From positions 5,066 to 69,065 of the forward strand of contig JANXVU010000133.1 in assembly GCA_025351485.1 (NCBI GenBank): 64,000 nt of DNA. Reading direction: 5' to 3'. Source of the stretch: Candidatus Eiseniibacteriota bacterium. GTDB lineage: Bacteria; Eisenbacteria; RBG-16-71-46; JACRLI01. Of this stretch, positions 11,873 to 17,253 are shown piece after piece. The notes beneath the pieces are model-generated. The model was not told where the DNA came from. It was given only the letters and a program-made list of their open reading frames with translations, and ran no database searches. The stretch's first letter is position 1. Each line of letters begins with the position of its first letter. Position numbers and translations under genes: made by a program.

Positions 11873-12889
11873 TCAGGCAGTCGCCCAGGTCTGGAGCCCC
11901 TGCGATTCGAAGCTGAATTCCACCACCTGCCCGCCCATCTTTTCGAGCTGGGCGGCGATCTTGTGCTTGCGGTCGAAACGGCAGAACAAGAGCAGATAGC
12001 CGCCGCCCCCGGCGCCCAGGATCTTGCCGCCCACGGCGCCCTTCTTGCGCGCCTCGGCGTACATGTTGTCGATCTCGGAGCTGGAGACCTGCGGGTCGAG
12101 CTTGCGCTTGTGCAGCCAGGCGTCGTGGAGCAGTCCCCCGAAGCGGTCGAGCTGCCCCAGGAGCAGGGCGCTCTTCATGTCGGCCGTCATGGCCTTGAGG
12201 TCGTGCAGGGCCGTCACCACTTTGCGCTCGCCCTTCATGAAGCTGCGGGTCTGGCGCTTGACGATGTTGCCGGAGTGGCGGCTGCGACCCGTGTAGCAGA
12301 GCAGCAGCCGGTATTGGAGCTCGTTCACCACTGCCGGGCGCACGCGCAGCGGGTTGACCACGGTGTGGTCGCCGTGGAACTCGATGTAGTTGAAGCCGCC
12401 GAAGGTGGCCGCGTACTGGTCCTGCCGCCCGCCTGCGATCTTCAGATCCTTGCGCTCGATGCGGTAGGCCAGTTCGGCGATCTCGTAGTCGGTCAGGGTC
12501 GACGACTGCCATTCCAGGAATGCGCCGATCAGGGCCACCACCAGGGTGCTGGAGGATCCCAGCCCCGATCCCGGAGGGGCGTCCGAATGCAGGAACAGGT
12601 CCAGGCCCGCGCCCTTGCTCATGCGCTTCACCACCTGCTTGACCAGGTCCAGGTTGCCGTCCAGTTGCATGGCGTCGGTGTGCATGTACTTGGCCACGAT
12701 GTCGTAGTCGAGCGAGGTGATGCCGATGGCCCGGTCCCGGCGCGGCTGGATGGAGGCGAAGGCGTACTTGTCGATGGTGGCCGACAGCACCACGCCCCCG
12801 TGCCTTTCCGGGTACGGGCTGACGTCGGTGCCGCCGCCGCAGAAACTGATGCGGAGCGGGGCGCGGCTTCGGAACGCGGGACGTTTCAA
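11873..12889 (-). CDS. GHMP-family sugar kinase (HddA / D-glycero-D-manno-heptose-7-P kinase-like)
   Basis: RAPLRISFCGGGTDVSPY, GHMP motif PPGSGLGSSSTLVVAL, and GGKILGAGGGGYLLLF. The TTG at 12889 overlaps the upstream stop (TTGA). The sugar specificity is not determinable from sequence. Confidence 0.8.
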   Translation of the reverse strand: MKRPAFRSRAPLRISFCGGGTDVSPYPERHGGVVLSATIDKYAFASIQPRRDRAIGITSLDYDIVAKYMHTDAMQLDGNLDLVKQVVKRMSKGAGLDLFLHSDAPPGSGLGSSSTLVVALIGAFLEWQSSTLTDYEIAELAYRIERKDLKIAGGRQDQYAATFGGFNYIEFHGDHTVVNPLRVRPAVVNELQYRLLLCYTGRSRHSGNIVKRQTRSFMKGERKVVTALHDLKAMTADMKSALLLGQLDRFGGLLHDAWLHKRKLDPQVSSSEIDNMYAEARKKGAVGGKILGAGGGGYLLLFCRFDRKHKIAAQLEKMGGQVVEFSFESQGLQTWATA

Positions 12890-14536: not shown

Positions 14537-17253
14537 TGTCCCGGCAACGCCTGGGGCAGCCCCTGCGGCGCGCTCCCGATGCCGGGGCGGCCCAGGTGGC
14601 GCATCACGTCGTTGTAGAGCTGCCGGGCGCGCTGGTCCTCGGGGTGCGCGTCCAGGTAGGGCCGCATCACCTGGTCGGCTTGCTCGGCCTGGCCCATCTG
14701 CGCGAGCAGCGTGAACTCGCTGAAGATCACGCTGGTGTTCTCCGGATCGGCGCGGCGGGCCACCTCGAGGCGCTCGAAGGCGTCGCGGTAGCGCTGCTTG
14801 AGCGCGTACAGCACACCCAGCCGGTAGTTGATCTCCGGGTTGTCCGGGAAGCGCTTGATGCCGTCCTCGAAGGCCCGGATGGCGCCGGCGGTGTCCCCGA
14901 GCTCCTCGCGGAATACGCCCCGGGAGACGGCCACGCCCGCAAAGTCGGGCGAGATCCGCTCGGCGCGGTCCAGCTCGTCGAAGGCCTTCTTCATGTCGTT
15001 CTTCTCGCGGTACGCGAACGCCAGCCGGACGTGCGCGGCGGAGTAGTTGCCGGCCAGCCGGACCTGGTTGTCGTCCTTGTAGGGGATGGGCGTGAGATTG
15101 CCGTCCTTGTCGAGCAGGCCGCGGTACAGGTAGGTCTCGTAGACCGCCTTGCGGGTGGCTTCCAGGTTCACCAGCGGATGGTTGCCGGTGCTGTCCTCGA
15201 GGACACGAAACGCCAGCCCCTCAAGCGAGAGCCGCTTGTCCAGACCCATCTGCTCCGGCACGGTGACCGCGAGATAGATCGGCTTCTTCCAGTGGTTCTC
15301 GTCCACGATGTGGGCGACCATGATGTCCTTGACCAGTTTGACCGACTCGTCCTTGTCCCGGTACGGCTCCAGGCCGTCCACCTCGTGGTCCTGGAGGCGG
15401 ATGGGCACCTTGGGCTCGAGGTCGCGGAGCTGCTTGATGTACCAGTTGGTGTTGAGCAGCGAGAGGTTCACGATCCGCACGTCCTTGCGGATCCCCTCCA
15501 CCTCCTGCAGATACCACAGCGGAAAGGTGTCGTTGTCGCCGTTGGTGAAGATGATGGCATCGGGCGCCAGCGGCATCAGCATGTTGTAGGCATAGTCGCG
15601 CGCCACGTAGTTGCCGGTGTGGTCCTGCTCGAAGTAGAAGTGGGCGCACGCGGCGATGGGCAGCAGCAGCCCGAGGGCGCCCAGTGCCGGCACCAGCACC
15701 CGGCGGTTCGCGGTGAGCCTGGCCGCCTTGAGACCTTCGTGGATCAGTCCGATCACCCCGAGGCCGATCCAGACCGTGAACGCCTCGTAGCCCCACAGGA
15801 AGAAGTAGTCGCGCTCGCGCACCTGGGGGTCCTTGAAGTTCAGGTACAGGATCAGTCCCAGGCTGCCGATCAGGAAGCATGCCTCGACCAGCACGAACAG
15901 GTGCTGCTTCCACTTGATCCCCAGCAGCATGTCCACGATGTGCATCAGGAAGACCAGCGAGATGGCCAGGGCATGCTGGTTGCCGAACTGGTACAGCGCC
16001 ACCGCGAGGATCCACACGGCCAGGTGCATCACCACCCAGGTGTCGGCCTTGAACTGGCCCTTGATCAGCTGGTACAGCCGCCCGAACTCCCCGATCGCGA
16101 TGGGAATGCCCATGGCCAGGAACGCCAGCATGCCGGTCCAGGGCTTCACGCCGGGGAACGACTCCATCGGCGGCCCCAGCACGAACTCGCCCTTGAAGTA
16201 GCGGAAGAACATGTGGTCGAGCTGGTAGGTCCAGTCGGCGCTGCGCGCCAGGGGGCTCGCGGGCGCGTACTGCTTGCGGGTGAACTCATCCCAGAAGGCG
16301 CTCCAGGTGCTGGGCGCGGCCTCGTTGATCATGGGGTTGTGCTGCGCGCGGATCACCAGGTACACGTGCACGCTGATCCCGGCCAGGAACGCGCCCACGG
16401 TGAGCCACAGGAAGGGCCGCAGCTCCTTTTTCAGGATGAAGTGCAGGGCCACGCACAGGACCAGCAGCCCGATCACGGAATAGGCCAGCGCCTTGGCGTC
16501 CGGCTGGACGTTGAGGTTTTCCTCGATGTACGATGTCCACTTGAGCCACATGGCCAGGATGAACACGCCCGTGCCCATCCACCAGGACCGGCGCCAGTCC
16601 ACCACCAGCGCGAACAGGACCACTGCCGGCAGCACCAGGAATCCTCCAAGGTGCCAGCCGATCCCGACGCACATCATGTACCAGATGGTGAGCAGCCGCC
16701 GCTCGTTCATGTCCTCGCCCTGCCGCTCCCACCAGTTCACGGCGGTCCACAGCGAGAAGAACATGATGGCCGAGGCGCCCACGTGCACGTGGGCGATCTC
16801 GGTGGAAGTGTTCCAGAAACTGTGGCTGAACGCGGTGAACCAGGCAGCCGTCAGGCCGGCGATGTAGGACAGCCACAGCTTCATCTTCTGGTCTTCGTCC
16901 TCCTCGGTCGGGGCCGGGGCCGCCTTGGCCCGCACCACCGGGTCCATCTGGAGGTGCATCACGCACTTCTGGACCAGCAGGTAGGTGAACAGGATGGTGA
17001 TCATCCCGGTCACCACGGAAACGAAGTTCACCCGGAAGGCGTACGAGCCGAACGGAAGCAACCCGAACAGGTGCCCGGTCAGCACGAACAGCGGCGTGCC
17101 CGGGGGGTGCGGGATTCCCAGGATCTTGGAAACGGAGATGAACTCGCCCGCGTCCCAGAACGGCACCGTTTGGGCCATGGTCTTGAGATAGACGATGAGC
17201 GGCACCACGACGGCGAGCGCCGCCATCAGCCGGTTGGTCATCCTTGAGTTCAT
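14533..17253 (-). CDS. DUF2723 (TMEM260-like) GT-C membrane glycosyltransferase with C-terminal TPR repeats
   Basis: ATG at 17253 with AAGGAG upstream. The signature [28 protein letters not shown] is present. About 11 or more TM helices; the C-terminal ~200 aa are TPR-like ([74 protein letters not shown]). Confidence 0.88.
   Translation of the reverse strand: [906 protein letters not shown]

Follow-up and report, generated by a model that had tools for sequence, protein, structure and literature searches.

A TMEM260-type GT-C glycosyltransferase in a predicted lipid-carrier-dependent glycosylation operon of Candidatus Eiseniibacteriota

That human TMEM260 is a protein O-mannosyltransferase came to light only in 2023, and an account of its mechanism followed in 2026. 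The original TMEM260 paper mentions merely "distant homologs in bacteria" (PMC10214176); these bacterial relatives are numerous. By cryo-electron microscopy and mutagenesis, D52 and H67 of the human enzyme were placed in a sugar-recognition motif, R264 and Y267 in a donor-loading loop and R355 on transmembrane helix 10, and D441 of its Rossmann-like domain was identified as the catalytic base, the mapped residues being essential by mutagenesis (bioRxiv 10.64898/2026.03.17.711096). Among bacterial systems, GtrA/GtrB/GtrC, ArnC/ArnE-F/ArnT and CsbB/GtcA/YfhO modify O-antigen, lipid A or teichoic acids. The Pgf system of Streptococcus mutans modifies surface proteins, and in the actinobacterial Ppm1/Pmt system the GT-C enzyme glycosylates Ser/Thr residues of exported, unfolded proteins. 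Here we describe a TMEM260-type gene and its neighbours in a 64-kb stretch of one contig (JANXVU010000133.1) of a Candidatus Eiseniibacteriota bacterium, hereafter the window, which has a G+C content of 66-72%.

A sequence-only reading of the window had proposed that four genes form a consecutive module for sugar activation, carrier loading and periplasmic transfer. All four were found at the positions given for them, all on the minus strand, and their order recurs in seven other Eisenbacteria-type genomes; however, they are not a unit of their own but genes 4-7 of a 15-gene minus-strand operon running from 20182 down to 394 (~20 kb). Gene calls were based on Pfam hits, orthologue lengths and stop/start coupling; GC3 frame plots did not separate the strands at 68% GC. 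The four genes are as follows.

14533 to 17253, minus strand: gene 4, TMEM260-type GT-C glycosyltransferase, 906 amino acids (aa), with PF11028
13598 to 14536, minus strand: gene 5, ArnC/GtrB-type polyprenyl-phosphate glycosyltransferase, 312 aa, with a GT2 domain and two C-terminal transmembrane (TM) helices
12886 to 13596, minus strand: gene 6, HddC/ManC-like sugar-1-phosphate nucleotidyltransferase, 236 aa, with PF00483 NTP_transferase
11873 to 12889, minus strand: gene 7, HddA/WcbL-family GHMP sugar kinase, 338 aa, with a TTG start, GHMP_kinases_N and GHMP_kinases_C

We read this region as the core of a periplasmic lipid-carrier-dependent glycosylation system, and we lean slightly towards protein as its acceptor. 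What looks new is a TMEM260-type, lipid-carrier-dependent bacterial system with its own synthase, a flippase candidate and facultative sugar-activation genes.

The product of gene 4 begins with the DUF2723 signature that had been claimed for it. Residues 34-221 matched PF11028 (TMEM260-like) with 126.8 bits (cut-off 24.2, E 1e-36), and the peptide quoted as the signature corresponds to residues 30-56. Relatives of the protein carry PF11028 together with PF28495 (TMEM260_2) in precomputed annotation. Among all PDB sequences, human TMEM260 (9rql/9rqm/9rqn) was the only match other than tetratricopeptide repeat (TPR) proteins. The match to 9rql had an E-value of 1.6e-15 when the sequence was searched alone; a profile of 70 sequences brought this to 1.8e-36, and a TPR-free profile built from 30 sequences across the FCB phyla to 1.2e-40. 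Its alignment falls into two blocks, one covering the N-terminal GT-C module and the other the last TM helices and the luminal Rossmann-like domain. No PMT, PMT_2 or TMTC-specific Pfam model matched at E ≤ 0.01. Judged by sequence, the 906-aa protein is a genuine TMEM260 homologue and not a member of the PMT or TMTC families, in line with the sequence-only reading.

An AlphaFold2 model built on 70 relatives (pLDDT 90.6, pTM 0.90) showed a membrane core of helices, then an alpha/beta domain (~545-727), and a TPR part of nine helices (728-886). About 15 TM segments were predicted from hydropathy and the model helices, with the N-terminus inside, and this predicted topology places the conserved motifs and the C-terminal domains all in the periplasm. 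The two C-terminal domains map as follows.

15073 to 15621, minus strand: periplasmic Rossmann-like domain, residues 545-727, from model strands and helices
14596 to 15072, minus strand: TPR domain, residues 728-886, nine helices and ~4.5 repeats, from Pfam, a PDB profile, Foldseek and the model

The C-terminal TPR region described by the sequence-only reading was borne out by both profile searches and the structure model, at a length of ~160 aa (728-886) rather than 200. A dozen TPR families (TPR_19 with E 1.2e-12, TPR_14, TPR_2 and others) matched residues 739-880, and profile matches of the region were to consensus TPR (CTPR) structures and the TPR structures of OGT. In a Foldseek search with the full-length model, TPR proteins dominated (target-normalised TM-score of 0.82 for CTPR). 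The only non-TPR GT-C matches were STT3A and PglB, with a query-normalised TM-score of ~0.33. TMEM260 structures were absent from the Foldseek matches, and the library may not contain them; the STT3A and PglB matches show only a generic GT-C fold, because TMEM260 structures possibly lie outside the library.

The residues on which the human enzyme depends are largely preserved. Two segments of gene 4 carry them outside the Rossmann-like domain and TMH10 equivalent.

17086 to 17166, minus strand: sugar-recognition motif of the first periplasmic loop, residues 30-56, with the D34 codon at 17152-17154 and the H49 codon at 17107-17109
16267 to 16278, minus strand: R326-K-Q-Y329 in a long periplasmic loop, the probable equivalent of human R264 and Y267

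Aligned with human TMEM260, D52 corresponds to D34 and H67 to H49. The conserved acidic residue that the sequence-only reading had suggested looking for in the first periplasmic loop is thus present as D34, and both D34 and H49 are invariant in 70/70 relatives. R355 aligns with R481 in a significant profile alignment, and G440-D441 aligns with G572-D573 (D573 codon 15535-15537, minus strand). D573 lies in the motif T570-N-G-D573-N-D-T576 of the Rossmann-like domain, which is invariant. D34, H49, R481 and D573 are invariant both in the 70 relatives and in the 30 sequences spanning the FCB phyla. The equivalence of R264/Y267 with R326/Y329 comes only from a weak, non-significant phmmer stretch; R326, Q328 and Y329 are invariant among the 70 relatives, and R326 and Y329 also in the phylum-spanning set.

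Gene 5 overlaps the stop codon of gene 4 in an ATGA, as had been read from the sequence, and its product was likewise correctly recognised as a GtrB/ArnC-like polyprenyl-phosphate sugar synthase. Its full-length matches among PDB sequences were ArnC (180 bits, residues 8-299) and the Synechocystis GtrB sll0501 (101 bits, residues 6-299), and the match to archaeal DPMS (68 bits) was confined to the catalytic domain (residues 8-213). Two C-terminal TM helices (242-260 and 272-290) are typical of polyprenyl-phosphate glycosyltransferases. From these features we assign gene 5 as a bona fide polyprenyl-phosphate sugar synthase. No GtrA-like gene is present. The gene upstream of gene 4, across a short gap, encodes a different type of membrane protein.

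17323 to 18306, minus strand: gene 3, MprF-type flippase-like membrane protein, 327 aa, with PF03706 LPG_synthase_TM and TIGR00374
17254 to 17322, minus strand: gap of 69 nucleotides before the GT-C gene, with the hairpin CCGGAGGGGCGAATGCCCGTCCGG, a T5 run and then the AAGGAG ribosome-binding site of the GT-C gene

The gene 3 product matched PF03706 with 144 bits (E 7.7e-42) and the flippase-like model TIGR00374, has ~8 TM helices and found no sequence match in the PDB. It is probably the translocator of the lipid-linked sugar. A fusion of the flippase-like protein with a GT2 domain was sought as a Rosetta-stone link and rejected; the best 120 relatives all are stand-alone PF03706 proteins. 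The 69-nucleotide gap is the only sizeable intergenic gap in the operon core. Its hairpin was not among the calls of the terminator scan; it could serve as an attenuator within the operon or affect RNA stability.

The gene order around the TMEM260-type gene is conserved. With the TPR-free part of the GT-C protein as query, the family comprised 14,358 clusters (50% identity) at E ≤ 1e-3 and 916 at E ≤ 1e-30. The closest relatives (65% identity) are labelled Candidatus Eisenbacteria. The second-closest relative (P0002, 65-70% identity) is labelled Candidatus Saccharimonadales; its contig is probably mis-binned, because its operon is of the Eisenbacteria type. When one genome per species was scanned, 80 loci were retrieved, spread over the FCB group: Eisenbacteria, Latescibacterota, Krumholzibacteriota, KSB1, Zixibacteria, Cloacimonadota, Marinimicrobia, Gemmatimonadota, Calditrichota, Ignavibacteria, Chlorobi, Bacteroidota, Rhodothermales and others.

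Neighbours were counted by searching the six-frame open reading frames (ORFs) of 82 related loci with the window proteins. A full-length GtrB-like gene lay within 5 kb on the same strand in 16/82 loci, comprising all Eisenbacteria loci with enough flank together with Latescibacterota and Fibrobacterota. By a rough estimate that assumes a few GtrB-like genes per genome, the chance of such adjacency is <1%. The linkage to a GtrB-like gene, for which the sequence-only reading had suggested co-occurrence statistics, is confined to a single clade made up of Eisenbacteria and neighbouring phyla. A flippase-like gene stood directly upstream of the GT-C gene in 19/82 loci, including KSB1 and Calditrichia. 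The kinase/nucleotidyltransferase pair was found in five of the 82 loci (L001, L002, L007, L023, L031); with L083/84 and L085 added, it occurs in seven related genomes, all of the Eisenbacteria type. Counting the window, 8 of ~13 Eisenbacteria-type genomes have the pair, and none in other phyla. The pair is thus a facultative part of the module that the sequence-only reading had drawn.

One Eisenbacteria metagenome-assembled genome (MAG; L001) is gene-for-gene syntenic with the window operon. The order flippase-like gene, GT-C, GT2, HddC, HddA, GT4 is found in L001, L002, L007, L023, L031, L083/84 and L085, and the same order without the Hdd pair in L004, L005, L026, L037 and L058, where the GT4 gene follows the GT2 gene directly. 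The GT-C proteins of these conserved-order loci share 33-65% identity with that of the window. In L002, L083/L084 and L085 (33-45% GT-C identity), the order rib-nusB, methyltransferase, GT4, flippase-like gene, GT-C is kept, followed downstream by GT2, HddC-like, HddA-like, GT4, a gene for a ~535-aa protein and GT2. In these loci an NAD-dependent epimerase/dehydratase gene is inserted after GT-C, immediately ahead of the GT2 gene, and the window has none; in one epimerase-bearing genome, a small ORF also precedes the kinase gene. Two tandem TMEM260-type paralogues are present in L002 and L083/L084, and the window has no second copy. The epimerase and the GT2-HddC-HddA block look like one donor-synthesis unit.

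Other clades place the gene differently. In Ignavibacteria, Chlorobi, Kryptonia and Bacteroidota MAGs, the genes before the homologue are lepA, lepB (signal peptidase I) and a radical-SAM gene resembling HemN (L020, L025, L041, L043 and L048-L067; ~11-18 loci), with no polysaccharide cluster; this context is a housekeeping one, adjacent to protein export. In KSB1 and Marinimicrobia, it follows recG and a DUF1844 gene. The TPR domain is not family-wide: sampled homologues of the Ignavibacteria/Bacteroidota-MAG type, including the close relatives of L041, have PF11028 and PF28495 and no TPR domain detectable in Pfam.

In this genome, the probable product of genes 6 and 7 is a GDP-linked sugar of manno configuration, either D-glycero-D-manno-heptose or something related to it. 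The gene 6 product had its best PDB matches to HddC structures (6jq8 and 5xhw, 113-116 bits), Yersinia HddC being the best. The gene 7 product, whose orthologue in L001 also has 338 aa, had full-length matches to 3k85, WcbL (4usk) and Campylobacter jejuni HddA (4n3o) with 242-276 bits. Against the NCBIfam models, however, gene 6 scored 119 bits for HddC (cut-off 300) and was also below the cut-off of the man1P-GTase model, and gene 7 scored 303 bits for HddA (cut-off 600). The HddC-like and HddA-like genes named by the sequence-only reading are therefore where they were said to be and match the expected structures, while their scores stay below the equivalog cut-offs; we class them as family members of HddC and HddA, for which such scores do not imply iso-functionality. 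A sugar of manno configuration, for instance D-glycero-D-manno-heptose, would suit both the conserved mannose-contacting residues and the Hdd-like pair, which in relatives is accompanied by an epimerase. Residues that bind heptose 7-phosphate were looked for in the WcbL paper, in which there is no substrate complex.

With E. coli GmhA and GmhB as tblastn queries, neither the window nor the flanks of the related Eisenbacteria loci gave a match. The search with GmhB served as a working control, because it found matches in other loci. Seven Chlorobiaceae loci (L048, L051, L056, L062, L066, L067, L073) have an ORF for a GmhB-like HAD phosphatase on the same strand, ~1.3-1.8 kb upstream of the GT-C gene, with 38-40% identity to E. 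coli GmhB; cultured carriers of the homologue, Prosthecochloris ethylica and Chlorobaculum sp., are among them (L048 and L073). This ORF could be a second independent link to heptose metabolism, a histidinol-phosphatase relative or a coincidence.

Taken as a scheme, the GT2 enzyme would move one sugar from a nucleotide sugar onto undecaprenyl phosphate at the cytoplasmic face, and the MprF-type flippase-like protein, or another flippase, would carry the lipid-linked sugar across the membrane. The GT-C enzyme would bind the lipid-linked sugar via D34, H49, R481 and probably R326 and Y329, with D573 acting as the general base in an inverting transfer to an acceptor hydroxyl. Homology with human TMEM260 is what suggests a protein acceptor, most likely a Ser/Thr residue of an extended secreted or envelope polypeptide that would be held by the TPR and Rossmann-like domains. 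The Hdd-like pair would probably supply a GDP-linked manno-sugar to the carrier synthase, to the cytoplasmic GT4/GT2 enzymes, or to both.

Several observations weigh against this scheme. On the donor side, the gene 5 product is nearer to the UDP-sugar-using ArnC and GtrB than to the GDP-mannose-using DPMS, and many genomes in which GT-C and GT2 are retained together lack the Hdd pair. As had been noted from the sequence, gmhA and gmhB are not in the window; Pfam scans of ~55 candidate ORFs across its 64 kb found no SIS/GmhA or GmhB-type gene. On the acceptor side, the human peptide-contact residues are mostly not conserved: R439 and P443 are replaced by N571 and D575, so that the window protein has NGDNDT where human TMEM260 has RGDLP. 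N736 is the sole invariant asparagine of the TPR region, and therefore the Asn ladder is not evident. The core of the human TMEM260 sequon found no match in any of the six frames of the window. The missing Asn ladder and sequon bear on acceptor specificity and not on the fold. One large clade of the family has no detectable TPR, and TPR domains occur in polysaccharide-export proteins too. Residue 155 (codon 16789-16791, minus strand) is His, whereas 67/70 relatives and human TMEM260 (E144) have Glu; in the human enzyme, E144 is in a loop close to the active site. His155 is common only to the window protein and its two closest relatives. A tie between His155 and the HddA/HddC pair was considered and rejected, since L007 has the pair yet keeps Glu. 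The searchable literature assigns no function or substrate to bacterial family members and holds papers on human TMEM260 only, which agrees with the statement of the sequence-only reading that bacterial DUF2723 proteins have no defined substrate.

The best-surviving alternative concerns the sugar only and fits either acceptor. The locus would hold two pathways. In one, GDP-heptose or a similar sugar from the Hdd pair would go to the cytoplasmic GT4/GT2 enzymes that assemble a Wzx-flipped oligosaccharide; in the other, the synthase and the GT-C enzyme would use housekeeping GDP-Man, UDP-Glc or UDP-GlcNAc. The donor-side points above are all counter to a manno-heptose on the carrier. The pair is facultative and therefore may feed cytoplasmic glycosyltransferases instead of the carrier; the core of flippase-like, GT-C, GT2 and GT4 genes persists when the pair is absent, and where present the pair sits between the GT2 and GT4 genes and borders both. 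The transferases that normally use GDP-D,D-heptose are cytoplasmic and build capsules, O-antigens and S-layer glycans. Against a separation of the two pathways stands the tight coupling right after the GT2 gene, with a spacing of 1 nucleotide between genes 5 and 6 and a TTGA overlap between genes 6 and 7. Moreover, L002, L083 and L085 hold the epimerase, GT2, nucleotidyltransferase and kinase genes in order, contiguously in L083 and L085, and the conserved mannose-contacting residues fit a manno-configured donor. We regard the two-pathway arrangement as a serious contender, albeit one we are inclined to doubt.

The alternatives that concern the acceptor draw on the rest of the operon, which comprises the following genes.

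19406 to 20182, minus strand: gene 1, S-adenosylmethionine (SAM)-dependent methyltransferase, 258 aa from TTG 20182 (Methyltransf_11, E 1e-21; the longest ORF reaches 20236)
18303 to 19409, minus strand: gene 2, GT4 glycosyltransferase, 368 aa (Glycos_transf_1, E 3.5e-39; GTGA overlap with gene 1; 369-aa orthologue in L001)
10741 to 11850, minus strand: gene 8, GT4 glycosyltransferase, 369 aa (Pfam scan and synteny)
9215 to 10744, minus strand: gene 9, second GT-C protein, PMT/ArnT-like, 509 aa (PF02366 PMT, 31 bits against a cut-off of 22.7; LA_3751/3752 family)
8322 to 9218, minus strand: gene 10, GT2 glycosyltransferase, 298 aa (Glycos_transf_2, E 2e-23; ATGA overlap)
7525 to 8325, minus strand: gene 11, SAM-dependent methyltransferase, 266 aa (Methyltransf_11; GTGA overlap)
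6050 to 7525, minus strand: gene 12, Wzx-type (MOP) flippase, 491 aa (Polysacc_synt, Polysacc_synt_3; 491-aa orthologue in L001)
4051 to 6045, minus strand: gene 13, AsnB-like glutamine amidotransferase, 664 aa (Asn_synthase, E 1e-79; TIGR01536, 447 bits)
2915 to 4051, minus strand: gene 14, GT4-like glycosyltransferase, 378 aa (Glyco_trans_1_4, E 1e-7; start chosen)
394 to 2886, minus strand: gene 15, third GT-C protein, YfhO-like, ~817-830 aa (PF09586 YfhO, E 3e-12)

Stop and start codons overlap at nearly all junctions of the operon. A scan for sigma-70-like promoters found none inside it, and a terminator scan found no internal sites above the shuffled expectation. For gene 1, the start codon was placed to follow a GGAG ribosome-binding site and to agree with the L001 orthologue, which has 258 aa. 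Gene 9 has orthologues of 521-536 aa in L001, L083 and L085 and its product found no sequence match in the PDB; homologues of gene 15 occupy the same operon position in L005, L026, L031 and L032. The operon totals three GT-C proteins (genes 4, 9 and 15) per single carrier synthase.

Upstream of the operon lie a rib operon controlled by an FMN riboswitch and then nusB. The riboswitch (28734-28861, minus strand, 116 bits) precedes ribD, ribE, ribBA, (ribH), nusB and a metallophosphoesterase gene (23808-28779, minus strand), and this rib/nusB block immediately precedes the glycan operon in L001, L002, L083-85 and the loci of ~14 further genomes. In the window, an RnfD-like gene, a DUF2330 gene and a divergent GT4 gene lie between the block and the operon. 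The divergent GT4 glycosyltransferase gene (20388-21401, plus strand) faces the operon start, and the same layout is found in L001. Elsewhere in the window, 52013-54775 (minus strand) encodes a protein of 920 aa, possibly secreted or on the cell surface, whose C-terminal domain is FlgD Ig-like.

With the same enzymology, the acceptor could be a glycan or glycolipid (exopolysaccharide, lipopolysaccharide (LPS)/O-antigen or lipoglycan) built by this same operon. Such an acceptor is plausible because the operon holds a full lipid-linked glycan set, with genes for Wzx, AsnB, two methyltransferases and four GT4/GT2 enzymes, and also encodes two GT-C enzymes besides the TMEM260-type one; gene 8 follows the GT2 gene directly even in loci that lack the Hdd pair. 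Precedents for a glycan acceptor are GtrC, ArnT, YfhO and the mycobacterial GT-C arabinosyl- and mannosyltransferases. The divergence of the peptide-contact residues and Asn ladder and the large TPR-free clade also point this way. However, the only characterised member of the family is protein-directed, and its split active site, with the base on the Rossmann palm, is invariant here. Distant clades have the gene alone beside lepA/lepB, with no polysaccharide genes, and the Pfam scans found no Wzy, Wzz, Wza or initiating phosphoglycosyltransferase in the operon. On balance, we consider a glycan or glycolipid acceptor rather unlikely.

It is improbable, in our view, that the whole operon is a self-contained general protein O-glycosylation locus, in which the TMEM260-type enzyme would start from a lipid-monophosphate manno-sugar (possibly undecaprenyl-phosphate-heptose made via the Hdd pair) and elaboration would fall to the two other GT-C enzymes and the glycan that is methylated, amidated and flipped by Wzx. 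If it were true, TMEM260-type enzymes would be an ancient protein-glycosylating family, widespread in the FCB group with thousands of sequence clusters; the third animal O-mannosylation pathway would have its bacterial root in this family, and a lipid-linked heptose would be a new kind of donor.

Still less probable, to the point of being hard to defend, is that the TMEM260-type protein is an en-bloc oligosaccharyltransferase, PglB-like, for a Wzx-flipped lipid-diphosphate oligosaccharide, so that the GtrB-like product would serve another GT-C enzyme. Its best non-TPR Foldseek matches are STT3A and PglB, and the non-GT-C genes of the operon match the protein O-glycosylation loci of Tannerella and Bacteroides, whose transferase to protein, the O-oligosaccharyltransferase, was unidentified as of 2018-2022 (PMC6120980, PMC8729774). 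However, those Foldseek matches reflect the generic fold, TMEM260 uses a monophosphate-linked monosaccharide by way of binding residues that are invariant here, and the GtrB-like gene is the tightest conserved partner of the TMEM260-type gene. Finally, the alternative offered with the sequence-only reading, that gmhA/gmhB sit elsewhere in the genome and the pair feeds LPS-core heptose, is very improbable and names the wrong pathway: the kinase is clearly of the heptose-kinase family and both genes could sit outside the 64-kb window, but LPS core takes ADP-L-glycero-beta-D-manno-heptose made via HldE (a PfkB-type kinase and adenylyltransferase), not via a GHMP kinase and an HddC-type enzyme, and the pair lies within a translationally coupled glycan operon and is absent from many related genomes.

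A TMEM260-type system that loads a lipid carrier and acts in the periplasm, with protein slightly favoured as acceptor, is not surprising as a general idea, because Pfam names the family after TMEM260. The operon nevertheless offers a concrete experimental target, with flippase-like, GT-C, synthase and activation genes translationally coupled. If the acceptor is protein, the system would represent a new bacterial protein O-glycosylation route in FCB phyla that have received little study. It would also show where an animal pathway with a link to congenital heart disease arose in evolution, give glycoengineering a compact set of enzymes and possibly provide the first heptose donor carried on a lipid. 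Should the acceptor instead be a glycan or lipid, the TMEM260 scaffold would not be inherently protein-directed.

Compared with known systems, the sugar-activation genes resemble the pathway to GDP-D-glycero-alpha-D-manno-heptose (GmhA, HddA, GmhB, HddC) in having a kinase and a nucleotidyltransferase that are family-level relatives, whereas their scores fall below the equivalog cut-offs and GmhA and GmhB are found neither in the window nor in related loci. The 27-kb O-glycosylation cluster of Tannerella forsythia shares Wzx, glycosyltransferases, methyltransferases, an AsnB-like gene and sugar-nucleotide genes with the operon (PMC6120980), but the Bacteroidota O-glycosylation loci lack GT-C and GtrB-like genes. 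We found no evidence of a TMEM260-type gene in cultured Bacteroidia, the retrieved Bacteroidota-type homologues being from Ignavibacteria/Bacteroidota-type MAGs without TPR, none of which bears the name of a cultured species, and the link to general O-glycosylation of Bacteroidota is a low-probability lead.

The actinobacterial Ppm1/Pmt (GT39) system follows the same logic of a cytoplasmically made polyprenyl-phosphate sugar and a GT-C enzyme for the acceptor step; it differs in that the 906-aa protein has no PMT/PMT_2 match or MIR domains and the synthase is ArnC/GtrB-like rather than DPM1/Ppm1-like. With the Pgf system (PgfS, PgfM1, PgfE, PgfM2) the operon has in common a GT2 synthase, membrane proteins and a GT-C enzyme of the YfhO type, and related Eisenbacteria loci add the epimerase. 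The gene 5 product scored 130 bits against the PgfS model, with the PgfS and PgfM2 cut-offs far above the scores; the window organism is Gram-negative, and Pgf has no TMEM260-type counterpart. In the Gtr, Arn and CsbB systems, as here, the synthase adjoins a GT-C enzyme and a small membrane protein, a possible flippase. However, that protein is GtrA or an SMR flippase there and an MprF/LPG_synthase_TM candidate here, and the GT-C enzyme of the window is TMEM260-type, with Rossmann-like and TPR domains.

Human TMEM260 (PF11028; 9RQL, 9RQM, 9RQN) differs from the window protein in having 11 TM segments instead of ~15 predicted, five TPR helices instead of nine, and its own acceptor-contact residues, Asn ladder and E144 (His in the window protein), and in using a dolichyl carrier where undecaprenyl is presumed here. 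The two proteins share homology across the GT-C core and the Rossmann-like domain, followed by TPR, and a catalytic side that faces away from the cytoplasm, as predicted for the window protein. The equivalents of D52, H67, R355 and D441 are kept, and those of R264 and Y267 probably so.

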